This document shows positions 1 to 16,796 of a DNA stretch of 64,000 nt, in pieces. The DNA is taken from the NCBI GenBank assembly GCA_963677595.1, contig OY782041.1, forward strand, positions 1,120,001 to 1,184,000, read 5' to 3'. Below the pieces are notes generated by a model. That model had not been told where the DNA came from, made no database searches, and saw only the letters and a program-made list of their open reading frames with translations. Numbering within the stretch: the stretch's first letter is position 1; each line of letters begins with the position of its first letter. The position numbers and the translations under genes were made by a program. Source of the stretch: Spirochaetia bacterium (lineage in GTDB: Bacteria > Spirochaetota > Spirochaetia > CAKZLE01).

Positions 1-200
1 CAGCCAACATCTACGATTTGTCAATAAAAAAATTCAAAACATAACCTTTTTTACCTTCAATCGAAAGTATATAGCAATTCGGACACAATAAATCATTACT
101 ACACATGACTCACAACCGGTGTTTCACCGCTGTCAGCAGGGGAGATCCCCCTATAAACAGGATAATTCCTGCAAGCTTATCTCTTTTGAAAGAATGCATA

Positions 201-229
201 TTGACTTACGAATGAAACAATCATATACT
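201..229 (+). promoter_or_regulatory. sigma70-type promoter of the ROK-GRE-GMC operon
   Basis: TTGACT (201-206), 17-nt spacer, TATACT (224-229) upstream of the ROK kinase. Confidence 0.7.
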
Positions 230-279
230 TTCTTTACAATCTCATACAGTGATAAACCTATCAGGGAATGGAGTGTTGG

Positions 280-1251
280 ATGGATAAGCAAGATGTGATT
301 TGTGCCGTTGATATCGGGGGGACGAAACTCAGTCTCGCCCTTGTGAACAGGGACGGGACCACGATCGAGACCGTGACTGTCTATGACCATGTCTCATTGA
401 CCCCGGACGAGTTCGTCGATTATATCGGCGAGAAGACCGAAGGCCTCCTTGCGGGCAATAACATACCGAAGTCCAGGCTCGCTGCGATCGGCGTAGCGAC
501 TGCCGGGCACCTGAACTACGAGACAGGTACCCTCATAGCCATGTCGAACCTGAACGGCTTCACGGGATACCCCCTGCGGGACAGGCTGCAGGAGCGGCTC
601 TCGGTACCGGTCGCCATAGACAACGACGCGAACTGCCAGGCTGTCGGGGAGCTCAAATTCGGGGCGGGACGCCCCTATAAGGACTTCATATTCATCACCA
701 TCAGTACACAGATCGGGGCTGGTATCGTGGTCAACGGCGATATCTTCCGCGGGCACCACGGGACAGCCGGTGAGATCGGCCATACCATCGTCGAACCGGA
801 TAGTGATGCCGTATGCCTCTGCGGCAACCACGGCTGCCTCATCTCGGTGGCATCAAGCGTGGCCTTCCCCTATACCGCAAAGAAGTTCTACGAGCAGGGG
901 ATCCCTTCATCACTGATCGGCGGACCAGACTTCGATTACAGCACGGTAGACGGGAGGCTGGTAGAGGACGGGATGAACGCAGGGGATGAGCTGTGCACGG
1001 CGATCGTCGATGAATACGCACGGTACATGGGAATCGCGTGCTACAACCTCTTCCAGGTATTCGATACGCAGGCCTTCGTGATAGGCGGCGGCCTCGCATG
1101 CTGGGGAGATCGGTTCTTCGACGGCATCAGGGCGCAGTTCCAGAAGCTGGTACGGCATATGGCCCTCGAGGATATCACGGTCATCCCCGCAGAACATACA
1201 AAGGACTCAGGAATCCTGGGAGCGGCAGCACTGGCGCTGTCCCAGGCCTGA
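280..1251 (+). CDS. ROK family sugar kinase (glucokinase-like)
   Basis: DIGGT ATP motif, NDAN, GEIGH and CxCGxxGC Zn motif; no N-terminal HTH; ATG 280 has a GGAG RBS (ORF track starts at 268). Confidence 0.9.
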   Translation: MDKQDVICAVDIGGTKLSLALVNRDGTTIETVTVYDHVSLTPDEFVDYIGEKTEGLLAGNNIPKSRLAAIGVATAGHLNYETGTLIAMSNLNGFTGYPLRDRLQERLSVPVAIDNDANCQAVGELKFGAGRPYKDFIFITISTQIGAGIVVNGDIFRGHHGTAGEIGHTIVEPDSDAVCLCGNHGCLISVASSVAFPYTAKKFYEQGIPSSLIGGPDFDYSTVDGRLVEDGMNAGDELCTAIVDEYARYMGIACYNLFQVFDTQAFVIGGGLACWGDRFFDGIRAQFQKLVRHMALEDITVIPAEHTKDSGILGAAALALSQA

Positions 1252-1274
1252 TCGACTATAAGGAGACATGAGAG

Positions 1275-3698
1275 ATGAATGAGACCATACAGCATACACA
1301 AGCTACAGGATACACGGACCGGATCATAGCCCTCCGTGATGAGGTACTGTCGGCTAAACCGACGATCTGTATCGAACGGGCACGACATTATACCAATGTA
1401 TACCGGGAGAACCCGGACAAGCCGGTCATCACCGTCAGGAGCCTTGCGCTGGAGAGGACCCTCAAGGAGATGACGATCTTCATCGAAGACGGTGCATTGA
1501 TCGTCGGGAACCAGTCCTCCCAGCTCCGTGCAGCCCCGATCTTCCCGGAGTATGCCGTAGAATGGATCACGAAGGAGATCGATGAGTTCGAGAAGCGGCC
1601 CGGCGATATCTTCTACCCGAGCGATGAGGTGAAGAAGGAGCTCCTGGGGATCTGCGACTGGTGGCAGGGAAAGACGACCCTCGATAAGGGCAGGTCGATG
1701 ATGGCCCCGGAGTTACGGGAGATCCATGCTGCCGGCATCATCCGGGCTGAGGGGAACCTCACCTCCGGGGACGCCCATATCGCGGTTAATAACGAGCGGA
1801 TCCTGCAGGATGGTCTCGGGGCATTCATCAGCCGGGTAGCGCAGAAGATGGATGCGTGCGACATCAGCACACGGGACGGCCTGAAGAAGAAGGTCTACTA
1901 CGAAGCGACCAAACGGGCACTGCTCGCACTGCAGACATTCATCCTTCGTTATGAGGAGCTTGCACGGGCGAAGGCTGAAGTCGAGGCTGACCGTACCAGG
2001 AAGGCTGAGCTCATACGTATAGCCGAGAACTGCAGGAACATATCCGCAGCGCCACCACAGGGCTTCTACGAAGCTGCGCAGCTCACCTACTTCATCCAGC
2101 TGGTCCTCCAGATCGAGAGCAACGGCCACTCGATGTCCCTCGGCAGGATGGACCAGTACCTCTATCCTTTCTATGCTGCCGACAAGGCGGCAGGGACCAT
2201 CAGTGAGAACTTCGCGATGGAGGTCCTGGAGAACATCTGGGTCAAACTGCTCTCTGTCCACAAGATCCGTTCATGGTCACATACCCGATACTCTGCCGGC
2301 AGCCCGCTCTACCAGAATGTGACGATAGGCGGCCAGACCCGTGACGGGAAGGATGCAGTGAATGAGCTCAGCTACCTCATCCTGCAGTCCGTGGGAGAGA
2401 CCCGGCTGACCCAGCCGAACCTCTCCGTACGATACCACAGCAATTTATCAGAGGAGTTCCTCCAGGCCTGTTTCAAGGTCATCGAGAAGGGCTTCGGCAT
2501 GCCGGCGTTCAATAACGATGAGATCGTGATCCCCTCCTTCATCGACCTCGGTGTCGAGCCGGCTGATGCCTATGACTACAGCGCTATCGGCTGTATCGAG
2601 GTAGCGGTTCCCGGGAAATGGGGCTACCGATGCACGGGGAAACATTTCATCAACTTCATGCGAGTCTTCATGGCGACCCTGAACGACGGTACCGACCCGG
2701 AGAGCGGGAAGCAGTTCTTCAAGGGTGACGGCACCCTAGAGGATTTCGCCGACTACGACGAACTGCTGAATGCCTGGGGGAATCAGATCCGCCAGTACGC
2801 GAAAGCGGGGATATCGATCGATACAGCCATCGATACCGTGCTGGAGGCTGACGGGCCGGACCTCCTTGCCTCGGCATTCGTGGATGACTGCATCGAACGC
2901 GGCCTGACGATCCACGAAGGCGGCTCCAAATACGACTTCGTATCCGGGCTGCAGGTCGGCATCGCGAACCTGGGGAACTCGCTTGCAGCGATCAAGAAAC
3001 TGGTGTTCGAGGAGAAGAAGATCCCCGCATCACTCCTCATGGAGCACCTACGGGATGACTTCGCCGGCGAGGAGGGGGAACTCATACGACAGCAGCTGCT
3101 GAACCTCGCCCCGAAATACGGCAACGATGTCGATTACGTCGACGACCTCGTTACAGAGGCATACAAACTCTATACAGATGAGCTCCCGAAATACCGGACC
3201 ATCCGGGACGGGCGAGGCCCGATCGGGTGTCGATGGTATGCCGGGACCTCGAGCATCTCCGCGAATGTCCCCTCAGGGGCAGTGGTAGGCGCCACCCCCG
3301 ACGGGAGACATGCTGGGAAACCGCTGGCCGAGGGTGCATCGCCTTCAAGCGGCACGGACGTGAACGGGCCGACTGCGGTCTTCCGTTCCATCGCGAAGCT
3401 GCCGACCGACAAGATCCTCGGAGGCGTCCTGCTGAACCAGAAGACGACACCGGCGATCCTGGCTGAACCCGCGAGCAAGAAGAAGCTCAGCTCCATGCTG
3501 CACGCCTTCTTCTCCGACCTCAAGGGCTGGCATGTACAGTACAACGTGGTGAACCGGGAGACCCTGCTCGAGGCACAGAAGAACCCGGAGGAACACCGTG
3601 ACCTGGTTGTCCGGGTAGCCGGCTACTCCGCATTCTTCAACACCCTCTCGCCGGAGACCCAGGATGACATCATCGCGAGGACAGAGCAGAAGATATAA
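1275..3698 (+). CDS. Glycyl radical enzyme, YbiW/PflF (PFL2)-like
   Basis: C-terminal RVAGYSA glycyl loop, single-Cys GCIE loop; KIRSWSHTRYSAGSPLYQNVTIGGQ and GKWGYRCTG resemble E. coli YbiW as recalled. Confidence 0.9.
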   Translation: MNETIQHTQATGYTDRIIALRDEVLSAKPTICIERARHYTNVYRENPDKPVITVRSLALERTLKEMTIFIEDGALIVGNQSSQLRAAPIFPEYAVEWITKEIDEFEKRPGDIFYPSDEVKKELLGICDWWQGKTTLDKGRSMMAPELREIHAAGIIRAEGNLTSGDAHIAVNNERILQDGLGAFISRVAQKMDACDISTRDGLKKKVYYEATKRALLALQTFILRYEELARAKAEVEADRTRKAELIRIAENCRNISAAPPQGFYEAAQLTYFIQLVLQIESNGHSMSLGRMDQYLYPFYAADKAAGTISENFAMEVLENIWVKLLSVHKIRSWSHTRYSAGSPLYQNVTIGGQTRDGKDAVNELSYLILQSVGETRLTQPNLSVRYHSNLSEEFLQACFKVIEKGFGMPAFNNDEIVIPSFIDLGVEPADAYDYSAIGCIEVAVPGKWGYRCTGKHFINFMRVFMATLNDGTDPESGKQFFKGDGTLEDFADYDELLNAWGNQIRQYAKAGISIDTAIDTVLEADGPDLLASAFVDDCIERGLTIHEGGSKYDFVSGLQVGIANLGNSLAAIKKLVFEEKKIPASLLMEHLRDDFAGEEGELIRQQLLNLAPKYGNDVDYVDDLVTEAYKLYTDELPKYRTIRDGRGPIGCRWYAGTSSISANVPSGAVVGATPDGRHAGKPLAEGASPSSGTDVNGPTAVFRSIAKLPTDKILGGVLLNQKTTPAILAEPASKKKLSSMLHAFFSDLKGWHVQYNVVNRETLLEAQKNPEEHRDLVVRVAGYSAFFNTLSPETQDDIIARTEQKI

Positions 3699-3711
3699 AG
3701 GCAGGAAGGAG

Positions 3712-5262
3712 ATGGGACTTCTAGAGAACTATGACCTGGTCATCATCGGTGCGGGAATGGGTGGGAGCGCACTCGCTTACGCCCTTCGCCATACCAGTCA
3801 CTCGATCCTCATCCTCGAACGCGGGGAGTACATCAGGCAGGAGGACGAGAACTGGGATATAGACGCTGTCATCACGCAGCGCAGGTACGACCCTGATGAT
3901 ACCTGGGTCGATGCTGATGGGCAGGAGTTCACCCCACGGGTCTACTACAATGTGGGGGGCTCGAGTAAGTTCTTTGGGGGCTCTTCCTTCCGGTACCGGG
4001 AAGTGGACCTTACCGGCAGGGTATACCCTGAGGGGGAGACCGTCCCCTGGCCGGTCAGCTATGAGGACTTATCCCCCTACTACGATGAGGCAGAACAGGC
4101 CATGAAGGTCCGCGGCCTAGCCGGGGCCGATCCCACGGAACCACCAAGGGGAGCGTATCCGTTCCCGCCGATCGAGAGCGAACCGCCGATCGCCCAGCTT
4201 GCCGAAGGGTTCAGGGAACGGGGACTCACACCCTTTCCCCTGCCCATAGCTGTCTATCAGGGGACGAACGGCCACTGCCGGAAGGGGAGTCCCTGTGACG
4301 GGTTCCCCTGCAAGATAAGGGCTAAGGGAGATGGGGAGAATGCCTTCTTCCGCCCTGCCCTCAAGGATAAGAAGGATATTACCGTCATCACATCAGCCCG
4401 GGTGACCAGGCTGCACCATGACACTGCCGGTGACAGGATCTCCCATATCGAGGTCATGGTCGACGGGAAGGTCCAGACAGTCAGCGCACGGCTGTTCGTC
4501 CTAGCAGCAGGGGCAGCCAATACGGCGGCATTGCTGCTGGGCTCTGCTTCTGATAGGTACCCCCACGGGATCGCCAACGGATCGGGCCAGGTCGGGAAGA
4601 ACTTCATGGCCCATAACAACACCGTCCTGATGGCCTTCTCCCTGTTCCGGAAGAACCCCACACGATTCCAGAAGACCATCACCCTGAATGATTTCTACCA
4701 CGGTGATTGCCCACAGGGTCCTGGTGCCGGGAATATCCAGATGCGGGGGAAGGTGCAGGCTGCGAACAATGCACGGCATGCCAATCCCCTCGTCCGCCTC
4801 TTCGCCGGCTTCATCGCGGCACGTTCGTTCGATTTCTGGCTGATGTCCGAGGATCTCCCCTCAGCAGAGAACCGGGTCGAGGTGGTCCCGGCAGCTGGCG
4901 GGGGGACTCGTATCCGGCTCAGCCGGAGACTCAACAACCTGTCGGTCCATCGGGACCTGGTGAGATCGTTCAGGAAGATCCTGCGTTCCATGGGATTCAG
5001 CTTCATCATCGAACGGACACCGTCCCCATCGGTGATCCAGCATCAGGTAGGGACTGCCCGCGCAGGGCATGATCCTGCCACCTCTGTGGTGAACAGCTCG
5101 TGCAGGGCACATGAGCTTGAGAACCTGTACATCGTGGACGGGAGCATCTTCCCCTCCTCCGCTGCTGTGAACCCGGCACTGACTATCGCCGCGAACGCGT
5201 TACGCGTCGGTTCGATCCTCGCTGAGGAATTGGACCGGGCTGCAGGGAAGAGTGGGAATTAA
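3712..5262 (+). CDS. GMC family FAD oxidoreductase
   Basis: GAGMGG FAD motif, VGGSS, HQVGTAR, NLYIVDGS, NPALTI; start 3712 after an AGGAG RBS. Confidence 0.9.
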   Translation: MGLLENYDLVIIGAGMGGSALAYALRHTSHSILILERGEYIRQEDENWDIDAVITQRRYDPDDTWVDADGQEFTPRVYYNVGGSSKFFGGSSFRYREVDLTGRVYPEGETVPWPVSYEDLSPYYDEAEQAMKVRGLAGADPTEPPRGAYPFPPIESEPPIAQLAEGFRERGLTPFPLPIAVYQGTNGHCRKGSPCDGFPCKIRAKGDGENAFFRPALKDKKDITVITSARVTRLHHDTAGDRISHIEVMVDGKVQTVSARLFVLAAGAANTAALLLGSASDRYPHGIANGSGQVGKNFMAHNNTVLMAFSLFRKNPTRFQKTITLNDFYHGDCPQGPGAGNIQMRGKVQAANNARHANPLVRLFAGFIAARSFDFWLMSEDLPSAENRVEVVPAAGGGTRIRLSRRLNNLSVHRDLVRSFRKILRSMGFSFIIERTPSPSVIQHQVGTARAGHDPATSVVNSSCRAHELENLYIVDGSIFPSSAAVNPALTIAANALRVGSILAEELDRAAGKSGN

Positions 5263-6017
5263 TCGGTATCGGTACTGTCGCTGATGAGCACCGTGATGCC
5301 GGCAGCCTCGAGTGCGGCTTTCTGGCCGGTCGTGATCCCATTATCGGTGATGAGGAAATCGATATCCTTGATAGAGCAGATCTGGCAGAGGGAGGTCTTC
5401 CCGATCTTGGTTGAATCCGAGAGGACATAGGTCGTCTTTGCCTTCCTGGCTGCATTCCTCGCTATATCAGCACGCATCATGTTCGAGCAGGTGAAGCCCT
5501 GTTCTGCAGAGATCCCGTCCACACCGATGAAGGCTTTCGAGAAGTTCAGGTGCTCGAGACCGAGCTGGGCAAGGGTACCGACCACGCATTCGCTGTCATA
5601 CTGGTAGACGCCGCCGAGCAGGATGACGTCGATCGAGGACCCTTTCAGCTGTCGTGCCACGAAGGTGTTGTTCGTCACGATCTGGATCCCGTTCCTCTTC
5701 ATGAGATGGCGGGCAAGGAGGACGTTCGCAGAGCCGGAATCGATGAACACGATATCACTGGTATCGATCTTATTCGCGGCAAAGGCTGCTATAGAGGTCT
5801 TGACGGCAAAGTTGATGCCGATACGACGCATGATATCATCCTCGTTATTGAGGACTGCCCCGCCGTGGACCCGTTTCAGGAGTCCGTGATTCTCAAGGTA
5901 GTCAAGGTCCCCCCGTATCGTCACAGCACTCACGTTGAAATGCTCTGAAAGTTTGTTTACCGAGATCTCCTCATTCTCTCCAAGCATCTGGAGAATCTTC
6001 CCTTGTCGTTCGTTCAT
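5259..6017 (-). CDS. DeoR/GlpR family transcriptional regulator
   Basis: VSAVTIRGDLDYLE HTH, RVHGGA, FIDSGS, DSTK sensor-domain motifs. Confidence 0.92.
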   Translation of the reverse strand: MNERQGKILQMLGENEEISVNKLSEHFNVSAVTIRGDLDYLENHGLLKRVHGGAVLNNEDDIMRRIGINFAVKTSIAAFAANKIDTSDIVFIDSGSANVLLARHLMKRNGIQIVTNNTFVARQLKGSSIDVILLGGVYQYDSECVVGTLAQLGLEHLNFSKAFIGVDGISAEQGFTCSNMMRADIARNAARKAKTTYVLSDSTKIGKTSLCQICSIKDIDFLITDNGITTGQKAALEAAGITVLISDSTDTD

Positions 6018-6090
6018 AATCATTCCTCACGGCATAGTAATATGTATCAGGCTCTCTGTCCAGCCGGCTGACCTACCAGCGGTCTTGCTA

Positions 6091-7023
6091 TCACCCGGTA
6101 AAGAGCCTTGCCCCGGCGTCAGCTAACACCTTCCGGAACGCTTCCATCTCATCTTCTGCATACGGATACTTCTGTTCCGTGAACTGCCAGGTCTTCCCAA
6201 GCGCATGGTACTTCCCCTTGGGAAGCGGGTTGAAGTTGACCAGCTCTATCGGGATGTCGCCGGGAAGGGACGCGACGAAGCGTGCCGTCGGGTCCAGATT
6301 CTCCTCCCTCGTCGTGATCCCGGGGATCATGGGGATACGGATCACCATGTTGGAGGTATGTTCCGCGATGAACATGATGTTCTTCAGGATCTGCTCGTTC
6401 CGAACCCCGGTATAACGCAGGTGCTCATCTGAATCCCACAGTTTGATATCGACGAGGAACTGGTCGATGAACGGAAGTGCTGCAGCAAGGAGCTTCTGGC
6501 TGTAGGAAGCTGTGGTCTCGACAGCCGTGTGGACCCCCTGCTCCCTGCAGGCCTTCAGGATCGCCAGGGTGAACTCATACTGGACGAAGGGCTCCCCGCC
6601 TGAGAGGGTCACCCCGCCTCCGGAGCGCTTATAGAAGGATTCATCCCGCCTGATGACATCCACCAGCTCAGGGACCGTATAGGACTTGCTGTCCCAGTCC
6701 AATGCGGAGACCGGGCAGGCAGAGACACAGGTCCCAGCGTTCGTGCATCGGTTCCGGTCGATCCTGATGAAATTGACTTCCCCGGGGTGTGCCGAGAGTG
6801 CCTTGTTCGAACAGGCATCGACACATCGCTCACATTGTATACAGCGTTCGTGGTAGTACCAGAGATCAGGCTTCCGAGCTATCCCCTCAGGGTTCTGGCA
6901 CCAGATGCAGGATAACGGGCAGCCTTTCAGGAAGACGGTCGTACGGATCCCGTCGCCGTCGTGGATGGCGAACCGCTTGATATCGAATACATCCCCTCTC
7001 AGTTCATGCGTGCTTCTTTCCAT
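6091..7023 (-). CDS. Glycyl-radical enzyme activating enzyme (radical SAM with ferredoxin insert)
   Basis: HDGDGIRTTVFLKGCPLSCIWCQNPE, two ferredoxin-like Cys clusters, GGVTLSGGEP; TGATG overlap with the upstream gene gives start 7023. Confidence 0.93.
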   Translation of the reverse strand: MERSTHELRGDVFDIKRFAIHDGDGIRTTVFLKGCPLSCIWCQNPEGIARKPDLWYYHERCIQCERCVDACSNKALSAHPGEVNFIRIDRNRCTNAGTCVSACPVSALDWDSKSYTVPELVDVIRRDESFYKRSGGGVTLSGGEPFVQYEFTLAILKACREQGVHTAVETTASYSQKLLAAALPFIDQFLVDIKLWDSDEHLRYTGVRNEQILKNIMFIAEHTSNMVIRIPMIPGITTREENLDPTARFVASLPGDIPIELVNFNPLPKGKYHALGKTWQFTEQKYPYAEDEMEAFRKVLADAGARLFTG

Positions 7024-8159
7024 CACGGCACCTTGGTCCATTGCCCATCCGCATCCGCAGACCGCTCTATCGCATCAAGGATGTACTGGACCTTCAGCCC
7101 GTCCTCGATGCCCGGGGAGGGCTGTCGCCCTTCGGACACTGCCCTTAGGAACTGGTACTGGCTCTCGGCATGGGAGCGCTCCCAGCCGATTGGGGCCCTC
7201 GGCGGCGGCGTCTTCGCACCAGGGTAGTTCTGCATGCATTCCAGCCGCTGCCAGCCCCTGTCTCCCCCATAGGTCTTCGCACCCTTGGTATCGTCATAGA
7301 AATAGAGGTAGCCTGGTTCCATGAGGTCGAACTTGAGCGCGCCGTATTCCCCATGGATCACGATCTTCAGGTCATCCAGGGTCCCGGTAGCGAAGCGGGA
7401 ACACTCTATCGACCCGACCGCACCATTGGCCATACGCCCATGGACCCATGAGACGTCATCGACGGTCACAGTCCCGTACCGGCTCCGGTCCTCGACGAGC
7501 GGTCGGGAATTGATGAAGGTATGCAGCAAGCCCTGCACAGATTCGAAGTCACCGAGCAGGTAGCGTACAAGGTCGAGCACATGGGAACCCAGGTCCCCAA
7601 GGGCCCCTGACCCGCCCTGTTCCTTCTGCATCCTCCAGCTCAGTGGACGGTCCGGGTTGTGGTAGCCCGAATGGAGGTACTCAGCCCGGTAGGTGAAGAT
7701 CCTCCCGATCAGCCCCTCGTCCAGGATCTGCTTCGCCCGTATGATCGCGGGGAGGAAGCGGTACTGGAATACCATCCCGAAGGAGGCTGAGGATTTCGCG
7801 GCCAGTTCCGCTATCTCCAGCGCTTCGCTGATCGTACCGGCAAGGGGTTTCTCACAGTATACCGCCTTCCCCGCTTCCAGTGCCTCCCGGATGACCGGCA
7901 GGTGGAGCTGGTTCGGCAGCGTGATATCGACCACGTCTATATCTGGGGAAACAGCAAGCTGGTGCACGTCCCCGTCGGCATGGAGGAACCCTGCCTCCTG
8001 CCTGGCTGTATCAGCAGTCTCCTGCCTCGATGTGCCGACCCGCTGCAGGACGGGACGGATCCCGCCAGGATAGATGATGGGGATCGTCCTGTAGCCGAGT
8101 GCATGGACCCTGCCGATACCGCTGTAGCCTGCCATCCCGATCCTTATCTCATTCTTCAT
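7023..8159 (-). CDS. Gfo/Idh/MocA family NAD(P) oxidoreductase (levoglucosan/inositol dehydrogenase-like subgroup)
   Basis: GYSGIG Rossmann, CEKPL, GALGDLGSH, VDD...GAVGSIECSR. Confidence 0.88.
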   Translation of the reverse strand: MKNEIRIGMAGYSGIGRVHALGYRTIPIIYPGGIRPVLQRVGTSRQETADTARQEAGFLHADGDVHQLAVSPDIDVVDITLPNQLHLPVIREALEAGKAVYCEKPLAGTISEALEIAELAAKSSASFGMVFQYRFLPAIIRAKQILDEGLIGRIFTYRAEYLHSGYHNPDRPLSWRMQKEQGGSGALGDLGSHVLDLVRYLLGDFESVQGLLHTFINSRPLVEDRSRYGTVTVDDVSWVHGRMANGAVGSIECSRFATGTLDDLKIVIHGEYGALKFDLMEPGYLYFYDDTKGAKTYGGDRGWQRLECMQNYPGAKTPPPRAPIGWERSHAESQYQFLRAVSEGRQPSPGIEDGLKVQYILDAIERSADADGQWTKVP

Positions 8160-8953
8160 ACTAGTGTGCCGTCCTCGTTCCGATATTTCTCACTCAATCT
8201 CTCGAGATGCGTTCTCAATTCACGGGTCTTCTCAGCGATCTTCCCGCTCCCCGGTTTCAGGATCCCCTCAGGGCCTTTCAGCAGGGGAGACGAGAACTCC
8301 CCGACACTCATCCCGCGGGAAACGAAACTCTCCAGGTTGGAAGCATTGAGCCCGCCGTCTTCCATGAGGTCGACATCCTTCTCACGACCCCGTTCTTTGA
8401 GCATCTCATACATCTTCGCGACGTTCTCAATGACGATATCATCGATGATGTGGGGACTCCTGCCCTGTACCGGCGGTTTCCAGAAGGGGTAGCGGCATTC
8501 ATACTCGATGATGTCCACGAACGGGATACATTCAGCGAACGGATGGACCGGGGCCCCCTGCCATGCCCACACCCCGGTCTTCAGCCCAAGCTCCTGGATG
8601 TAGGTGAGGTTCTGGACGATGGTCTCGCCTGTGGTCTCTATGGGAACGGTGATCAGGTCTGCACCTGCATCACTGAGCTGGCTGAACAGGTCAAGCGTAG
8701 GCCGCTCCATCTGGAGCTGCACCTCGATCTCCAGGTTCGTATACTTCCTGATCCCGGTCAGGATATCGATCCCGCCCCGTGGGACATTGAACTGCATATA
8801 TCGTCCATCGCGCATCTCGATATGGATCCAATCCGCACCGCCTGCCTCGAGTTCGGCAACAGTATCAGCCAGGTACCCGTAGTCAGCCCAGAACAATCCT
8901 GCTGCGATCTTCACGTTCTTCTGAGGATAACCTATTTTCTTCGTTTTCATCAT
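8156..8953 (-). CDS. Ribulose-phosphate 3-epimerase family protein, divergent
   Basis: GADWIHIEMRDG, GADLITVPIE and MEDGG echo the RPE TIM-barrel motifs, with substitutions. Confidence 0.78.
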   Translation of the reverse strand: MMKTKKIGYPQKNVKIAAGLFWADYGYLADTVAELEAGGADWIHIEMRDGRYMQFNVPRGGIDILTGIRKYTNLEIEVQLQMERPTLDLFSQLSDAGADLITVPIETTGETIVQNLTYIQELGLKTGVWAWQGAPVHPFAECIPFVDIIEYECRYPFWKPPVQGRSPHIIDDIVIENVAKMYEMLKERGREKDVDLMEDGGLNASNLESFVSRGMSVGEFSSPLLKGPEGILKPGSGKIAEKTRELRTHLERLSEKYRNEDGTLV

Positions 8954-8995
8954 TCTTTCCTTGCGTTTGGAATAATTTTGCTTTTATTCGATAGT

Positions 8996-9024
8996 ATTAT
9001 AGCCTATCATCGTAAGTTACGCAA
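8996..9024 (-). promoter_or_regulatory. sigma70-type promoter of the epimerase-oxidoreductase-activase operon
   Basis: Minus strand TTGCGT, 17-nt spacer, TATAAT. Confidence 0.65.
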
Positions 9025-9108
9025 TGATTACTTACTCCTGGATGCATACTTCTCCACTTTCCAGGCTGGGACCATACCAGAGAGCGGGCGTTAGACAAGC
9101 CGGGCATC

Positions 9109-10272
9109 TCACCCCCGGACCAACCTGTTCAGTCTCTCCGAGAAAATGAACTGCATCCCGATGAGCACGCTGATCAGTATGGGGAGCATGAAAGCACCCG
9201 TATGATCGATGAGCACTCCCATCACCGGGGGCACTGCCGCTGCCCCGATATACGCGAACCCCATCTGCAGGCCGATGACCTTCTGGGAGTTCTCCACCCC
9301 GAACCGGACCGGGGTCTCATGCAGCATCGCCGGGAAGACCGGGGCGAATCCCAGGCCTATGAGGACCAGGAGGAACCCGGTGAGTACGGGAGGGAGCGGT
9401 ATCATGAGGAGGAGTCCTCCCGCTATGGCGATGACCAGGCCCAGCCTGATCATCTGGGGGTTGGTCAGCCTGAACGAGAAGAACCCGGAGAGGAACCTCC
9501 CGATCGTGATCCCCCCGTAGTACATGGACATCCAGAGCGCTGCGGCCTCGACGGAATACCCGCGCTCGAGGCTGAGGAAGCTGCTCCCCCACAAGCCGAC
9601 CCCCACTTCCGCTGCACAGTAGCAGGCCATGACGACAAGGGCTGCAGGGACTCCCGGGATCCGGAAGGCCGGCCGTCCTGACGGCGTACCCGCATTCTCT
9701 AGTACGTGATGGCTCACCTCCGGCTTATGCCGTTTCCAGAGCGGGAGGCTCAGCAGCAACAGTACTGCCATGCTGAGCTGGATGATCCCGATCAGGCGGT
9801 ACCCCGACTGCCAGGTCCGGCTCACGATCATGGAACCCATGATCAAAGGACCTACCGTCGCCCCCACCCCCCAGAAGGAGTGGAGCCAGTTCATGTGGTG
9901 GGCCTTGAAATGCATGGCTACGTAGTTGTTCAGTGCGGCATCGACGGCACCCCCGCCGAGCCCGAGGGGGATTGCCAGGGGTATCATCCAGTAGAATGAC
10001 GGGACCAGTGAGATCCCCAGGAGGGAAGAGCCAGTCATGAAGCAGCTGATGAAGACGATCCTGCCGGTCCCGACCTTGCTGATGAGCGCGGCGCTGGTCA
10101 GGCTCGATATGATCGTCCCGATCGTGATGACGATCGAGATCGTGCCGAAGAAGCTGACGGGAGTCCCCCAGGCTAGGTGGATGGCAGGGATCGCAGCCCC
10201 GAGGACTGCATCAGGCAGCCCGAGGCTGATGAATGCAAGATAGATGATGCCAAGCAGCAGCAGTGTGATCAT
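9109..10272 (-). CDS. MFS transporter (fucose permease-like)
   Basis: ~12 hydrophobic segments; LGLPD, GAVDAALN, HSFWGVGA. Confidence 0.88.
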   Translation of the reverse strand: MITLLLLGIIYLAFISLGLPDAVLGAAIPAIHLAWGTPVSFFGTISIVITIGTIISSLTSAALISKVGTGRIVFISCFMTGSSLLGISLVPSFYWMIPLAIPLGLGGGAVDAALNNYVAMHFKAHHMNWLHSFWGVGATVGPLIMGSMIVSRTWQSGYRLIGIIQLSMAVLLLLSLPLWKRHKPEVSHHVLENAGTPSGRPAFRIPGVPAALVVMACYCAAEVGVGLWGSSFLSLERGYSVEAAALWMSMYYGGITIGRFLSGFFSFRLTNPQMIRLGLVIAIAGGLLLMIPLPPVLTGFLLVLIGLGFAPVFPAMLHETPVRFGVENSQKVIGLQMGFAYIGAAAVPPVMGVLIDHTGAFMLPILISVLIGMQFIFSERLNRLVRG

Positions 10273-10281
10273 GTCGTCCCC

Positions 10282-11298
10282 CTATGTCCTCTCAATGAGC
10301 CTGTACTTACATGAGAGTTCCTGCATAGCCAGGTACGTGAGGCCGGCAACGAAACTGTCATGGATATCTTCCTCGAACAGGATCTCAGGGACCTGGGACC
10401 CCTGCCTGGATGCTGCAGTCAAGGCCACGATCCGCTGCTTCAATGCCGGGTTGAAGAATATCCCGGTGAGCATGACTCGTGCGGGATTGACCACACAGTT
10501 CAGGGCAAGGACCATGTGGGAAGCCAATGCGGCAAAAGCATCCATATCTTCCTGCACCTGAGCCTGGTTGAGGCCTTCGAGGCCCGGCAGGTATGAGAGT
10601 TCGCCGGCAAAGTCGGCATATCCTCGGATGAGCTGCCCGTTGATGATGATCCCGGAGCCGGCACCCCCAGCCTCCGGGTAGTAGATATAGGCGAAACTCT
10701 CTGACGGGTCCTCACCCAACGACACATACTGCCCAAGGGCAGTAGCATTCACGTCATTCTCCGCGATAGCCGGAATACCGTACCGGTCACTGAGGTAGTC
10801 AACGATCCCGATCGTGGGGAATGATGCGATATCGCAGGTCATGATCCTGCCGTCATGGACGATGCCGGGAATGCCCAATGCCAGGACACGTATCGACGGG
10901 TAGGCGACCAGGGCCTGCCCGATCACCTTGTCCAACTCTTCGAGACCCAGGGCCGTACCATGGACGATCTCAGTGGCTGCCGTCCTCCCGAGTGCATCCA
11001 CGACCTGGGAGAAGAGGATCTGCCGTTCACCCTCCTTACGCAGGTAGATCAGGAGGGCATGGAAATGATCGGGGTTGTAGGAGAACTGCTTCGAGGGTCG
11101 TCCCCCGGTGGAGTCAGCCGGTTCGACCTCAAACACCTCCCCAGACTGGAGGAGGTCGGTGATGATGTTCTTGCAGGTCGCCACGCTCAAGCCTGACTGT
11201 TCCGCAAGCACGTTGTGCGTGACACTCCCCTGCTGTCTCATGATATCCCGTATCAGGTCCGTATGGATCTTTCGTAAACGCTGTGTATTCCCTACCAC
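10282..11298 (-). CDS. ROK family transcriptional regulator
   Basis: N-terminal HTH (SGLSVATC), STGGRP, ENDVN, GSGIIING...AGEL. Confidence 0.88.
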   Translation of the reverse strand: MVGNTQRLRKIHTDLIRDIMRQQGSVTHNVLAEQSGLSVATCKNIITDLLQSGEVFEVEPADSTGGRPSKQFSYNPDHFHALLIYLRKEGERQILFSQVVDALGRTAATEIVHGTALGLEELDKVIGQALVAYPSIRVLALGIPGIVHDGRIMTCDIASFPTIGIVDYLSDRYGIPAIAENDVNATALGQYVSLGEDPSESFAYIYYPEAGGAGSGIIINGQLIRGYADFAGELSYLPGLEGLNQAQVQEDMDAFAALASHMVLALNCVVNPARVMLTGIFFNPALKQRIVALTAASRQGSQVPEILFEEDIHDSFVAGLTYLAMQELSCKYRLIERT

Positions 11299-11427
11299 TT
11301 TAGTTACCTCTTAACGTAAGTAGTATATAAAGAGACCTGACCCAAGTCAAGTGTCTTCAGGACCATAGCATTCAAACCGATTCAAGGGTATACTTCTCTC
11401 TATGTATACCACAGTGAACAGGAGGAA

Positions 11428-12713: not shown

Positions 12714-13232
12714 TCATGCCGGGTCTCCCGGCATGCTATCGGGGAACCTGAGCTGCAGGTGTATGTTCCCGTTCCCCGATACCCTCTGGTCTTCTCTGAA
12801 GCCGAACTTCCTATAGTACTCGACGAGGTGCTGCCCTTTATCATTGATCCATTCGGTGTCGAGGGCAAGCCCGGCCAGTCCCTGCTTCCGGGCGGACTCA
12901 ATCAATGCCTCCAGGATGCTCGTCCCGGTCCCCCGGCCGGGGACCATGACGGCAAGCGTATCGATGAAGACCATCCCCGGTAGTGCATCCGCATAGACCA
13001 GGAGCACAGCTTCAGGCCTGTTCCCATCGTAGAGGAAGAGACCCTCGAACCCTGCTTTTCTTTCCCGTTCGGCAAGCTCCCCTTCCGTGTAGACCAGCTC
13101 CCTGCCGAAGCTCTTCCGGTCGATCCGGGAGAAATCCTTCAGCAGTGCATCATCCCACCTCCTGAAGCAGCGGGTCCGCAGGTGCGTCCCCTGCATCTCC
13201 AGGATACGGGCAGTCTCCTCGAGGATCGTCAT
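12714..13232 (-). CDS. GNAT family N-acetyltransferase
   Basis: IDTLAV..GRGTGTSILE acetyl-CoA motif, YYRKFGF. Confidence 0.82.
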   Translation of the reverse strand: MTILEETARILEMQGTHLRTRCFRRWDDALLKDFSRIDRKSFGRELVYTEGELAERERKAGFEGLFLYDGNRPEAVLLVYADALPGMVFIDTLAVMVPGRGTGTSILEALIESARKQGLAGLALDTEWINDKGQHLVEYYRKFGFREDQRVSGNGNIHLQLRFPDSMPGDPA

Positions 13233-14218
13233 AAGCCGTACCGGGCGGCGGCAGAGTCGATCAGGGCCCCGACCAGGGAATCGTAGTCGTAGCCTGCCCT
13301 GAAGGCCATGAGGGTGTAGAAGGAGAAATCCTTCACCGATTCATCATAGTCTATCCCCGGCAGCGGGTTGATCTCGAGGAACCAGATCCGTCCTGCATGG
13401 TCGACCCGGAAGTCGAGGCGGGCGAAATCGCGGATCTTCAGGACCCGGCAGATCCTGACGGCATACTCTTCCAGGGACTGTTCGAGCTCCTCGTCTATGC
13501 GGGCGGGACAGATATAGTTCTCCAGGTCGTCATAGACGGTCTTGGCGATCTGTCCGAACACATTGCCGGCCCCATCCGGCATGCGTGAGAAATCGACCTC
13601 GAGGATGGGGAAGACCTCTACCGGTGAGTCAGGACGCACCAGCACCCCGATACTGAACTCTCTGCCGCTGATGAAGCCTTCCACGAGGATCTCCCGGGCA
13701 TACTGGCTGAACATGAGTCCTGCCTTCCGTAAGAATCCCTCCCGGTCATACACCACATTGTCCGCGTTGATGCCGATGGAGGATCCCTCCATATTGGGCT
13801 TCAGGATTACCGGGAAGGCCGGGTCGAGCCTCTTGGCCTCTGCCAGTGATGAGATCACCTGGTGGTCAGGGGTATCAAGGCCTTCGGCCCTGACGAAGAG
13901 CTTGGTCCAGCCCTTGTTGAGGCATACGGCCAGCGTCCCGGGACCTGACCCGATATAGGGGATCCCGAGCATCTCGAGGATCGCCGGTATATGGGACTCC
14001 CGGCTTTCGCCCCGCAGGCCTTCCGACCGGTTGAAGACGAGGTCAGGCCTGACCCGCTTCAGTTCCTCCGCCACCTGCTCATCCGCCTCGATGAACACAT
14101 ACTCATACCCGGCAGCCTCGATACCGTGCCGTACCAGCTCGATCGTGTGGGGAGGGTCGAACTCGACCTGGAATTCGTCCTCCTCGTGCCTCGTGTTCAG
14201 GACCAGTGCTATCTTCAT
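13229..14218 (-). CDS. D-Ala-D-Ala ligase-like ATP-grasp enzyme
   Basis: LEMLGIPYIGS, KPNMEGSSIGI, EGFISGREF, RLDFR, LEINPLPG; lacks the canonical Ddl GGxSxE N-terminus. Confidence 0.88.
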   Translation of the reverse strand: MKIALVLNTRHEEDEFQVEFDPPHTIELVRHGIEAAGYEYVFIEADEQVAEELKRVRPDLVFNRSEGLRGESRESHIPAILEMLGIPYIGSGPGTLAVCLNKGWTKLFVRAEGLDTPDHQVISSLAEAKRLDPAFPVILKPNMEGSSIGINADNVVYDREGFLRKAGLMFSQYAREILVEGFISGREFSIGVLVRPDSPVEVFPILEVDFSRMPDGAGNVFGQIAKTVYDDLENYICPARIDEELEQSLEEYAVRICRVLKIRDFARLDFRVDHAGRIWFLEINPLPGIDYDESVKDFSFYTLMAFRAGYDYDSLVGALIDSAAARYGL

Positions 14219-15621
14219 ATTCCCTCGTATAACCTCATGAAATGGTCGATCTCCTCGGTGTAGATCCTCTTCAGGTCAACACCGAGCTCCACAGGAACAG
14301 AGATCGCCGGATACTGCCTCACGAACCGGGCAAGCAGTTCCCCCTCCCTATCCCGTGCTTCTTCTGCAAGCGCTGAGGTCTTGAACCGCTCCACCAGCGG
14401 GTCTTCTGCCCCGAACCGGGCTGCACAATGGAAGGCGAAGAGCTGCTCATCCCTGGCAAGTCCCGTCCGGGCATAGGGGAATCCCGACTCCCCGCCGAAG
14501 ATGGGGAAGAACCTGAGCTGCTCTTCGGTCAGCATGGACCGCTTGAAGCCTACAGCGGCTGGGTCCACGCCCCCGCCGAGGCACATCAGGTACATCTTGG
14601 CACAGATGGAGCACTCGTGGCACCACCGGTCATGCTTTCCGGCCTCCCCTTCTGCGAAGCAGCTCATCTGGTACTTCGCATATGCAGGGTAGCGCCTGAC
14701 GAGCATCCGCTGGATCATCATATCCATGAGGGGCTCGATCAGGCTCCCTGTCCTGACAGGATCCTCTCCTGTCAACGATGCGGTCATCGCGTCGATATGG
14801 CCTGTCCAGAGGTGGGTCTGGTCATAACAGGGATAGACCGTCCACCTCCCGGATGCATCCCGGTAGGAGGACCCTGCCGACTGCTCGTTCCCGAATAAGA
14901 TGTACCCTGCCCCAAATGCCCTGGCATAGGGGAGCATCATCAGGGCATACTCCGTGGACTGCAGGCCCCAGCCGTACTCATCCTTCCCTGTCCCGAGGTG
15001 TTCATCATCCCTGAGCAGACCGGTACTGTGTTCCAGGATGTTCAGGTCCTTCCCGAACTCCTTCAGGAACTCTTCTGCCAGGACCTCCTTGTGGGCTCGT
15101 TCCTGGGAGAAGCCCGGCTCATCCACGAAGACCGGGACTGGATCGAGCCCGAGCTCCTCACTGAGTGCGAAGGTCAGCAGCGAATCCTTGCCGAAGGAGA
15201 GCGGGACCAGCGCCTTCACCGGCCTGCCCGCTTTACCAGACGGCCAGGGAGCCGGAAGCCGCATGCGCCCAACATCGAAGCTGAAGGAGAGCTCCAGGAA
15301 CCGCTGAGTCTCACCAGCGATGTCGATACCGTCCATGTCGCAGCAGGAGGGGATGTCACGGAGGAAGTTCTGGAGGAAGTAGGGTTCGAAGAAGGGACGC
15401 CCCGAATGGAAGTGCAGTCCCTTCACACCCTTCAGTTTCATGGGCAGGTGCATGGCGGCTGCATAGGAGAGGTTGTCGAGCAGCAGCAGCTTCACCGCTT
15501 CCGGGACAGCTTCCCAGATCTCCTGCGGGTATGCTATATGGTAGGATCTGCCCCTGAATGTGAGGCATATCCCCTGCCTGGTCAGGGAGGGGAAGAGCTC
15601 AAGTCGTCCTCCCCTACTCAT
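14215..15621 (-). CDS. MurL-like ATP-dependent peptide epimerase (PP-loop, Cys-rich C-terminus)
   Basis: ALVPLSFGKDS PP-loop, FGNEQSA, SLIEPL, SC, RWCHECSIC follow the order of recalled MurL motifs (GGGKDS, FSNERSA, SLLRPL, RWCxxCPKC). Confidence 0.65.
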   Translation of the reverse strand: MSRGGRLELFPSLTRQGICLTFRGRSYHIAYPQEIWEAVPEAVKLLLLDNLSYAAAMHLPMKLKGVKGLHFHSGRPFFEPYFLQNFLRDIPSCCDMDGIDIAGETQRFLELSFSFDVGRMRLPAPWPSGKAGRPVKALVPLSFGKDSLLTFALSEELGLDPVPVFVDEPGFSQERAHKEVLAEEFLKEFGKDLNILEHSTGLLRDDEHLGTGKDEYGWGLQSTEYALMMLPYARAFGAGYILFGNEQSAGSSYRDASGRWTVYPCYDQTHLWTGHIDAMTASLTGEDPVRTGSLIEPLMDMMIQRMLVRRYPAYAKYQMSCFAEGEAGKHDRWCHECSICAKMYLMCLGGGVDPAAVGFKRSMLTEEQLRFFPIFGGESGFPYARTGLARDEQLFAFHCAARFGAEDPLVERFKTSALAEEARDREGELLARFVRQYPAISVPVELGVDLKRIYTEEIDHFMRLYEGI

Positions 15622-16796
15622 GACGACTGCTTCCCTGTGATGACCGCGACATACCGGTCTCCCGGGAGGTGCTCGGCATGATGGAGGTTGATCAGGGCGA
15701 GGAGCCCTGCCGTGGATGCCGGCAGCACCAGCAGCCCGTCGGTCTCCTTGAGCATCTTCGCAGCCGACTTCATCGCCTTGTCGGAGACATAGGAGGCAGA
15801 CCCGTTGCTGTCATAGATCGCCTTCAGCGCCTCATCCCCGTCGATGGAGTGCCAGTTGATCAGGGGCTCGTTGATGGGGGTCTCCTTGACCGAACCGGGT
15901 TTGAGGTCCCGACACTCATTGTGCTTCCGCAGGAACGAGTCGATGATAGGGTTCTTCCGGTAAGAGGAACCGGCTATGATGCGCGGGATCCTCGAGGTCT
16001 TGCATCGCCTGTAGAGGCTCAGGAATCCCATGTAGATCCCGGCAAGGGCTGTCCCGTTGGAGACAGGCACCCCGACCGCCGCAGGTGCGTCCCTGAGTTC
16101 GTCATAGATCTCATAGGCGATCTGGGCATAGGCCTCCATCTGGAGGACCGTGTTCCGTCCCCCGGGGTTTGCATCGTAGATGTCATCCCGCTCGGAGCGG
16201 TTATGGGACTCCTGGCAGGCCTCCTCATAGTCGGAGCCTGCGAAGATGATCTCAGCCCCGTAGCCCTGCATCTCGCTGATCCTGTGGGTGCGGTACCCTG
16301 CCGGGATGTAGATGATGCACCGCAGGCCGGCAAGCCTGCAGGCGAGCGCCATCGCCGCCCCGTAGTTACCGCAGGTAGCCGTCGTCACGGCATCATAGCC
16401 CCGCCTGATGGCATCATGCGCCTGGGCGAAGGCGATCCGGTCCTTGTGGGTGCCCGAGGGGTTTCCCCCCTCGAACTTGAGGTAGAGGTTCCGCAGGTTG
16501 ATCTCCCGCTCGATGTTCCGCCCCCGCGTCAGGGCAGTATCACCGATCTCCCGGTCCATGATGTCGCGGAAGGCCTCGATACGCTCGATGGTCGTCAGGC
16601 TGATGTCAGAGGAGGTCCGTATCTGTTCATTGAGCAGGGGATCGATGGCAGGAGACTGGGAGGTCGCACCGTCCAACAGCGGCTCGCCATCCTCGGAGTC
16701 AGACAAATCAGCGGTACTCGAAGCCCTGAAGGCCGGTGCCGCATTCCCGTTCCCTGACATATTCAGGTTCCGGGTAAACGAAGGGGTACTACCCAT
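15618..16796 (-). CDS. Threonine synthase-like fold-type II PLP enzyme
   Basis: LKFEGGNPSGTHKDR (PLP Lys), ATCGNYG, VPVSNGT, VITG; ~70-aa N-terminal extension, start uncertain. Confidence 0.85.
   Translation of the reverse strand: MGSTPSFTRNLNMSGNGNAAPAFRASSTADLSDSEDGEPLLDGATSQSPAIDPLLNEQIRTSSDISLTTIERIEAFRDIMDREIGDTALTRGRNIEREINLRNLYLKFEGGNPSGTHKDRIAFAQAHDAIRRGYDAVTTATCGNYGAAMALACRLAGLRCIIYIPAGYRTHRISEMQGYGAEIIFAGSDYEEACQESHNRSERDDIYDANPGGRNTVLQMEAYAQIAYEIYDELRDAPAAVGVPVSNGTALAGIYMGFLSLYRRCKTSRIPRIIAGSSYRKNPIIDSFLRKHNECRDLKPGSVKETPINEPLINWHSIDGDEALKAIYDSNGSASYVSDKAMKSAAKMLKETDGLLVLPASTAGLLALINLHHAEHLPGDRYVAVITGKQSS

Follow-up and report, generated by a model that had tools for sequence, protein, structure and literature searches.

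A stretch of 64,000 nucleotides from the genome of a Spirochaetia bacterium (assembly GCA_963677595.1, contig OY782041.1, positions 1,120,001 to 1,184,000; hereafter the window) holds the second part of a gene cluster of about 21.5 kb. This cluster is probably a real and conserved variant of anhydroglycolysis that operates independently of the phosphotransferase system (PTS). In gut bacteria, for which anhydroglycolysis was reported in 2024, the route starts with the PTS (PMC13450708, PMC12441222). In our coordinates the window is G000:C1:1120001-1184000, where G000 is the source genome (95.4% complete) and C1 its single contig. The assignment is based on gene content, the clade of the glycyl radical enzyme (GRE) in the window (GRE1), the loss of a glutamate from the kinase and the co-occurrence of genes across loci; from these we infer the steps of the pathway. 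The window part comprises seven genes, and the open reading frames (ORFs) were all found at the positions and on the strands given in the original prediction, which had been made from the sequence alone. Families were assigned by Pfam/NCBIfam profile search.

280..1251 (ORF open from 268), + strand: ROK-family sugar kinase (PF00480, 1.6e-61)
1275..3698, + strand: GRE1, a YbiW-clade GRE of the PFL-like/Gly_radical families (best PDB match YbiW, 8ID7)
3712..5262, + strand: GMC flavoprotein, nearest to the large subunits of fructose/glucose dehydrogenases
5259..6023, - strand: DeoR-family regulator (best model YciT, score under cut-off)
6091..7041, - strand: AE1, a GRE-activating radical SAM enzyme (TIGR02494, 333 bits)
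7023..8159, - strand: Gfo/Idh/MocA oxidoreductase (hereafter Gfo; profile search)
8156..8953, - strand: RPE-like protein of the Ribul_P_3_epim family, with an RPE fold (RPE, ribulose-5-phosphate 3-epimerase; profile search and fold)

GRE1 is of the YbiW type, as had been predicted. E. coli YbiW (8ID7) was its best PDB match with 954 bits, compared with 594 bits for glycerol dehydratase and 514 bits for PflD, and the sequence was 56% identical to E. coli YbiW and 38% to PflD. Cys440, Glu442 and Gly783 of GRE1 align with Cys441, Glu443 and the RVAGY motif of YbiW. H165, H281, S282, R453, T455 and S662 of YbiW have the same residues at the equivalent positions of GRE1; by analogy with glycerol dehydratase, these six may be contact residues. 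In a FastTree phylogeny of 31 sequences picked from the retrieved loci, GRE1 was placed inside the YbiW clade with support values of 0.83-0.99. This tree was rooted on the genome's GRE4 as its sole outgroup, without glycerol/propanediol dehydratases. YbiW and PflD use the Cys and Glu mentioned above (Cys441/Glu443 in YbiW) to ring-open 1,5-anhydroglucitol-6-phosphate and 1,5-anhydromannitol-6-phosphate to 1-deoxyfructose-6-phosphate (DF6P), which is subsequently cut by aldolases (PMC13450708). Hence, GRE1 is predicted to be a 1,5-anhydroglucitol-6-phosphate C-O lyase. The original prediction had suggested a different anhydrosugar for this enzyme, but neither another substrate nor new GRE chemistry was indicated for GRE1 itself, and the second GRE described below is the likelier carrier of a new specificity.

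The ROK kinase retains the DxGxT, catalytic Asp, ExGH and CxCGxxGC motifs in an alignment to 3VGK/2QM1. ROK proteins carry a CxCGxxGCxE motif (PMC5458393), of which the closing Glu contacts the 1-OH of glucose in ROK kinases (PMC3553997). In the window kinase this Glu is replaced by Ile (residue 188, counted from position 280). All 99 ROK proteins in the loci that matched the motif pattern had Met, Ile or Phe at this position and none had Glu; in the alignment, Glu was absent from all close ROK homologues and present in 8 of the 11 ROK paralogues of the genome. Because the kinase has lost the residue that contacts the 1-OH, its substrate would lack an anomeric hydroxyl, which fits 1,5-anhydrohexitols and provides independent support for a 1-deoxy-sugar substrate. 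We therefore predict from the sequence that it is a 1,5-anhydrohexitol 6-kinase.

The association between these genes was examined in two surveys, one covering the best 80 of 362 GRE1-related genome loci, with neighbours within up to 10 kb, and the other the best 80 of 223 metagenome loci with an RPE-like gene, many of which were short and some near-duplicates. A related ROK kinase was found near the GRE1 orthologue in 67 of the 80 GRE1 loci, across phyla; the records were labelled Spirochaetota, Bacteroidota, Victivallales, Vecturithrix and Bacillota, and the closest relatives of GRE1 came from spirochaete genomes. A DeoR gene was present in 43 of these loci. The RPE-like loci contained Gfo (54 of 80), a close ROK (33), GMC (26), GRE1 (16) and GRE2 (9), so that the predicted conservation of the gene combination was borne out. 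These numbers, together with the ROK kinase near GRE1 in 67 loci, imply that the gene association is not due to chance.

The locus is larger than the seven genes originally described. Examination of 20 kb upstream placed the start of the cluster at about G000:1107433, which is 12.5 kb before window position 1, and the whole cluster runs to G000:1128953. Upstream lie GRE2 with a second activase, the gene for a 603-aa protein and four genes of a monosaccharide ABC importer, besides genes for a short-chain dehydrogenase/reductase (SDR), a lactonase and an AraC regulator. These last three were rare in related loci and may be no part of the cluster. A PTS or Fsa aldolase immediately upstream, which the original prediction had named as the finding that would make this the known pathway, was not present; the importer and the second GRE module occupy that position. 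A family scan found no aldolase or PTS gene among the nine annotated ORFs of positions 1-11300 or in the upstream 12.5 kb, and no glycosidase in the cluster; for the window beyond 11300, ORFs were listed without a family scan. Genome-wide, no PTS permease matched PF02378, PF02302 or PF03609, a search that did not include the galactitol, glucitol and ascorbate PTS families; proteins with an enzyme-I domain do exist in the genome. Both anhydro routes of E. coli begin with phosphorylation by a PTS (PMC12441222). The gene content here supports the claim of PTS independence, with the putative kinase and ABC uptake standing in for the PTS.

The second GRE and its neighbours are located as follows.

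G000:1109482-1111839, upstream of the window: GRE2, a second, PflD-related GRE
G000:C1:1109482-1114597 (L001:9482-14597), upstream of the window: GRE2, activase and 603-aa protein

The best PDB matches of GRE2 were PflD structures (658 and 637 bits), and in the tree it was sister to PflD on a long branch. The 603-aa protein had no Pfam or NCBIfam match. Its predicted structure (pLDDT 89.6) has a ROK fold, with ROK glucokinases as top Foldseek matches, and its Atlas features lie near ROK clusters. At E<=1e-30 it had at least 1,276 homologues; in a sample of 300 genomes of the class it occurred in 16 besides the source genome, and among 15 stretches retrieved, 12 had its gene next to one for a GRE2-type enzyme. 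In the activase tree, both activases of the cluster grouped with activases beside GRE2-type enzymes and not with E. coli YbiY. Moreover, two loci have a single activase gene between two different GREs (L013:5123-12421 and L144:11300-18633). Since a lone activase can lie between two GREs and the window cluster has no YbiY-type activase, one activase may serve both GREs.

Other GREs were also observed. GRE3 is a paralogue 61% identical to GRE2 that lies with an activase and an ABC importer in G000:C1:3500731-3512722; its further neighbours we take to be two PfkB-like kinases, an amidohydrolase-like protein and a lyxose-isomerase-like protein. GRE4 is divergent (about 32% identity to YbiW and PflD) and has the motif GCSE; together with its own activase it occupies G000:C1:4056995-4060411. 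A distant GRE in L171 (G033:C13), 44% identical to GRE1, has the motif A-N-G-K-S-K, two flanking ROK genes and an ABC importer, and possibly acts on another substrate.

The GMC, Gfo and RPE-like genes are accessory to GRE1 loci, because most of these loci lack them. The GMC protein scored 117 bits to fructose dehydrogenase and has a catalytic-region His444 and a three-Cys motif, the latter found in all 32 full-length homologues from the loci. The Gfo protein scored 215 bits to levoglucosan 3-dehydrogenase and 67 bits to 1,5-anhydrofructose reductase (2GLX). Its best NCBIfam model was levoglucosan dehydrogenase, at 254 bits against a cut-off of 650, and by these scores it belongs to neither family. 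The Gfo gene directly followed the RPE-like gene in 40 of the 45 loci with room for it. RPE-like loci furthermore contained a Zn-dehydrogenase (19 of 80), an RmlD-like reductase (15) or a fused E1 (8), and never FsaA.

The RPE-like protein has the RPE barrel (TM about 0.75/0.91 to 2FLI) and keeps the DGG and SS motifs of the phosphate site. Compared with TIGR01163 it scored 72 bits, with a cut-off of 213. Its metal ligands are His44/Glu46/Gln79/Asp199 instead of the canonical His/Asp/His/Asp, and Arg48, Gln81 and Glu152 occupy the positions of three methionines in canonical RPE; a separate canonical RPE of the genome (3850379-3851077) served as alignment reference. These rebuilt residues were invariant in 119-120 of 120 homologues. 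In RPE, the methionines form a proton-free cushion that prevents isomerisation (PMC9978339), and because they are replaced here, plain epimerisation by the RPE-like protein is doubtful. The family is rare and patchy. It had 678 homologues at E<=1e-20 and stands isolated, with one full-length 50%-cluster at 434 bits and the next full-length one at 102. Besides the source genome, none of 400 genomes in a phylum sample had the gene, yet it was present in genome G004 and two members of the class; a tblastn search of plasmids gave no match. As a separate observation, a 287-aa protein, presumably shikimate-dehydrogenase-like, and RmlD-like reductases turned up repeatedly in related GRE clusters, frequently in ones that lack the RPE-like/Gfo pair (L233:17592-18455, L234, L235, L236, L243, L097, L098, L100, L101).

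The expected lack of an aldolase near the GRE was confirmed, with no Fsa-type aldolase in the cluster and a best genome-wide tblastn match to FsaA of only 47 bits. The genome has three long TAL/FSA-family genes, all within other sugar loci. FsaA, FsaB and three GRE-linked Fsa proteins have Tyr131/Arg134, a pair that we take to be an Fsa signature; the products of these three genes do not have it. A candidate for the cleavage of DF6P lies elsewhere in the genome.

G000:2064163-2069386: thiamine diphosphate (ThDP)/lipoamide complex of E2, E3 and fused E1 (assigned from E2, E3 and both the alpha and the beta domain of E1)
G000:2066933-2069386: fused E1, orthologous (58%) to that of RPE-like clusters and about 815 aa long, under the pyruvate dehydrogenase (PDH) cut-offs
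G000:C1:2063376-2077942 (L167, L168): cluster of DeoR, E2, E3, fused E1, PHP-like, SrlD-like, SorE-like and rhamnulokinase genes, adjoining rhamnose isomerase

Around E1 are genes for an SDR resembling sorbitol-6-phosphate dehydrogenase, a Zn-dependent reductase (presumably SorE-like), rhamnose isomerase and a rhamnulokinase-like kinase; in most of 12 other genomes examined, all or some of this neighbourhood recurred. These sorbose-pathway-like reductase/dehydrogenase and rhamnulokinase-like neighbours would likewise produce a 1-deoxyketose phosphate. Like acetoin, DF6P is a methyl ketol, and its cleavage to acetyl-CoA and erythrose-4-phosphate by an enzyme of the acetoin dehydrogenase type is chemically sound. 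The eight RPE-like clusters with a fused E1 included two with GRE2. An E1 orthologue was present in 39 of 49 GRE1 genomes, which were hand-picked from the 80 GRE1 loci; a 40th match was only 35-37% identical. None of the four genomes with Fsa beside GRE1 had the orthologue, and an Fsa query matched 5 of 31 chosen GRE1 genomes, all five of them E1-negative. E1 occurred in 22 of 24 GRE1-bearing Bacteroidota compared with 33 of 250 genomes in a Bacteroidales sample, and both GRE1 carriers within that sample also had E1. The E1 complex may thus replace the aldolase. A third way of cleaving the product is possible through an aldolase that we take to be DeoC-like, found beside GRE2 at L237:5752-6504 and near GRE1/Fsa at L039:6047-6814. 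Genes that presumably encode dihydroxyacetone-kinase-like proteins were also observed near GRE1 loci (L010:2907-3902; L030:4402-7332).

Combining these results, we propose that the ABC importer would take up 1,5-anhydrohexitols and that the ROK kinase very likely phosphorylates them at C6. This would feed GRE1, which we have good confidence ring-opens 1,5-anhydroglucitol-6-phosphate to DF6P. In parallel, the chances are about even that GRE2 opens the ring of the manno epimer in the same way, after its phosphorylation by the 603-aa ROK-fold protein. More tentatively, the GMC, Gfo and RPE-fold proteins might form a feeder that handles the 6-phosphate of a keto-anhydrosugar (1,5-anhydrofructose or the 3-keto tautomer) through a 2,3-enediol, with NAD(H) redox leading to DF6P or to GRE substrates. 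We likewise put forward with some reserve that DF6P is cut not by Fsa but by the fused-E1 complex, to acetyl-CoA and erythrose-4-phosphate.

Several observations weigh against this proposal. Two segments near the active site differ between GRE1 and YbiW, one of which is K-H in GRE1 for M-S after Thr455 in YbiW. The GMC, Gfo and RPE-like genes occurred in only 8, 5 and 4 of the 80 GRE1 loci, respectively. GRE2 is only 43% identical to PflD and scored 788 bits with a cut-off of 1109 (PRK09983/NF007437), and the PflD motifs L-H-D and T-D-K-G are changed to W-S-D and K-D-H-A. The E1 complex is located 940 kb away in the source genome and was within 10 kb of GRE1 in none of the 80 loci; it is also frequent where GRE1 is missing, since 25 of 40 spirochaete relatives had the complex and only two of these relatives had a GRE1 orthologue of at least 60% identity. 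Its activity may be no more than that of a pyruvate or acetol dehydrogenase. The enrichment of E1 is confounded by lineage, as related genomes are not independent and metagenome-assembled genomes are incomplete. Moreover, 27 of the 31 GRE1 genomes examined had TAL/FSA-family genes, some of them short.

Part of the evidence can be read differently. GRE2 might not be the equivalent of PflD but act on another phosphorylated polyol or anhydro-polyol made by the 603-aa protein, so that two pathways are joined in one cluster. We regard this as a serious possibility, though short of an even chance. The low identity, long branch and altered site motifs of GRE2 point in this direction, as do GRE2 and the 603-aa gene without GRE1 in the retrieved stretches of L237, L238, L240, L242 and L243, and the occurrence of GRE3 among presumed PfkB-like kinases and a lyxose-isomerase-like gene. 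However, GRE2 and PflD have the motifs N-A-S-S, R..S-A-x-Y-F-A-G-F, C-x-E, Asp and Y-T-V-S-A-H in common, and GRE2 lies in one cluster with GRE1 in L005, L008, L013, L025, L042, L144, L233-L236, L244 and L246. It is highly unlikely that GMC and Gfo perform a 3-oxidation of glycosides or levoglucosan that feeds the kinase and GRE with a different anhydrosugar, as the original prediction had proposed. Although levoglucosan dehydrogenase is the best model for Gfo, GMC is a flavoprotein of the sugar-dehydrogenase type and GRE1 has K-H after Thr455, the Gfo score is far under the cut-off, the cluster lacks a glycosidase and none of the 21 PF01261 (LgdB-family) matches of the genome lies in the cluster. 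We therefore rejected the levoglucosan/glycoside reading. On levoglucosan, a hexokinase-type kinase would find no free 6-OH. The K-H variant was found in 14 of 96 motif matches, with or without RPE/Gfo/GMC genes and with named origins that were all spirochaete; it was rejected as marker of a new GRE1 substrate, because it tracks the spirochaete lineage and not gene content.

The other two alternatives concern the RPE-fold protein, and we consider both unlikely. With Gfo it could form a radical-free ring-opening pair, leaving the GREs as a parallel anaerobic route. Oxidation at C3 (or 1,5-anhydrofructose-6-phosphate directly) would give a 2,3-enediolate, and beta-elimination of C1-O5 would lead to 1-deoxy-2,3-hexodiulose-6-phosphate, which after reduction at C3 becomes DF6P. 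Such ring opening would explain the clusters of RPE-like, Gfo, ROK and E1 genes without a GRE. The invariant Arg, Gln and Glu in place of the cushion methionines agree with this chemistry, and the characterised protein most closely related to Gfo oxidises a sugar at C3 as the first step in a sequence of oxidation, elimination and reduction. RPE-like, Gfo and E1 genes clustered without a GRE in L120, L128, L130, L132, L159 and L163, the Glu-less kinase was kept in the GRE-free loci L154 and L159, and GRE1 and the Zn-dehydrogenase never co-occurred in RPE-like loci. However, the absence of a GRE holds for a range of about 10 kb at most, the Glu is kept in 13 less closely related ROKs of RPE-like loci, mostly of the E1/Zn-dehydrogenase type, the mutual exclusion tracks lineage, and the pair would be redundant beside one or two GREs in spirochaetes. 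Moreover, we know of no RPE-fold enzyme that performs such a ring opening. Alternatively, and with about equally low probability, the RPE-fold protein could act after the GRE, as a C3 epimerase of 1-deoxyketose-6-phosphate (allulose-6-phosphate epimerase-like) or a metal-dependent retro-aldolase, or else an unlinked transaldolase-family protein could cleave the product. This is consistent with the retained fold and phosphate-site motifs, the lack of FsaA in all 80 RPE-like loci and the three TAL/FSA-family genes. In contrast, the RPE-like gene is tied to Gfo and not to GRE, and the three TAL-family proteins lack Tyr131/Arg134 and are located in other sugar loci. As a general substitute for Fsa the RPE-like protein was rejected, since it is present in only 8 of the 49 GRE1 genomes. 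Radical-free opening by the RPE-fold/Gfo pair combined with oxidative cleavage of DF6P by the fused-E1 complex would constitute a second architecture of anhydrosugar catabolism, a combination that seems more improbable still.

If that combination were true, GRE-free and possibly oxygen-tolerant bacteria could use 1,5-anhydroglucitol, 1,5-anhydromannitol or 1,5-anhydrofructose, and DF6P would yield acetyl-CoA and erythrose-4-phosphate rather than hydroxyacetone and glyceraldehyde-3-phosphate. According to PMC12441222, an oxidative or aerobic route for 1,5-anhydroglucitol has yet to be described; the GRE-free clusters are candidates for one. Under the preferred reading, a PTS-independent anhydroglycolysis, environmental anaerobes (spirochaetes, Bacteroidota, Victivallales, Vecturithrix and some clostridia) are indicated to run the route with a kinase of its own that can be told by a single residue, in most cases with no aldolase linked to it. 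This would widen the known sinks for anhydrosugars derived from starch and glycogen. What makes the cluster interesting is whatever stands in for PTS and Fsa, along with the GRE2/kinase pair and the rebuilt RPE-fold enzyme. We found no description of these in the open literature, though the 2024 paper (Ma et al. 2024, doi 10.1021/jacs.4c07718) or its supplement may cover clusters with a kinase or without Fsa. Four candidates are directly testable: the putative kinase for 1-deoxy-sugars, the PflD-related GRE together with a kinase outside Pfam, the rebuilt RPE-fold enzyme and the oxidative cleavage complex.

Two further features border the genes described above.

201..229, + strand: sigma-70-like promoter match (10/12 to the consensus) upstream of the ROK kinase, not above chance
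9109-11298, - strand: MFS transporter and ROK-family regulator, adjoining the cluster

The promoter scan gave 4 sites compared with 4.3 +/- 2.1 in shuffled sequences, and the terminator scan gave nothing above chance. The MFS/ROK-regulator pair is absent from related loci and is probably a separate unit. The opposing operons for GRE1 and the activase AE1, which the original prediction had noted, are present here, but the layout varies among relatives; we rejected it as a meaningful feature because gene order differs between them. Further along the window, a four-gene operon at 12714-16796 (- strand) includes a 468-aa protein. We take its genes to include a GNAT protein, an ATP-grasp enzyme resembling D-Ala-D-Ala ligase and a pyridoxal phosphate enzyme resembling threonine synthase, and a role in small-molecule or cell-wall modification is possible.

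The proposed system resembles several known ones in part. The RPE-like protein shares the barrel, His44, Asp199 and the phosphate-site motifs with ribulose-5-phosphate and D-allulose-6-phosphate 3-epimerases, but differs by Asp to Glu and His to Gln changes, the lack of cushion methionines and an identity of about 25%. Sinorhizobium has a Gfo-family reductase that handles 1,5-anhydrofructose; that route ends, however, in oxygenation to mannose and not in ring opening (PMC12441222), and the Gfo protein scored only 67 bits to 2GLX. The levoglucosan pathway consists of LgdA, LgdB1, LgdB2 and LgdC (PMC7676230, PMC10066097), with lgdB1 conserved beside lgdA in the genomic regions depicted (PMC10066097). 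Gfo is a distant relative of LgdA, and the logic of oxidation, elimination and reduction may hold for the accessory module; unlike that pathway, the cluster has a kinase and GREs and no PF01261 eliminase or hydratase. The candidate cleavage complex shares E2, E3 and the alpha and beta domains of E1 with acetoin and pyruvate dehydrogenases, whereas its E1 is fused (about 815 aa), scores under the PDH cut-offs and lies within deoxy-sugar operons. In E. coli anhydroglycolysis, YbiW/YbiY occur with fsaA, and PflD/PflC with frw PTS genes, fsaB and gldA (PMC13450708, PMC12441222). We checked this gene order in E. coli. In the cluster described here, an ABC importer and ROK kinases take the place of the PTS, both GREs lie together, there is no Fsa or GldA, the activases are of the GRE2 type instead of the YbiY type, and GMC, Gfo and RPE-fold genes are added. 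Like E. coli, however, the cluster has GRE activases, a GRE related to PflD and one of the YbiW clade (56% identity) that carries the CxE motif.

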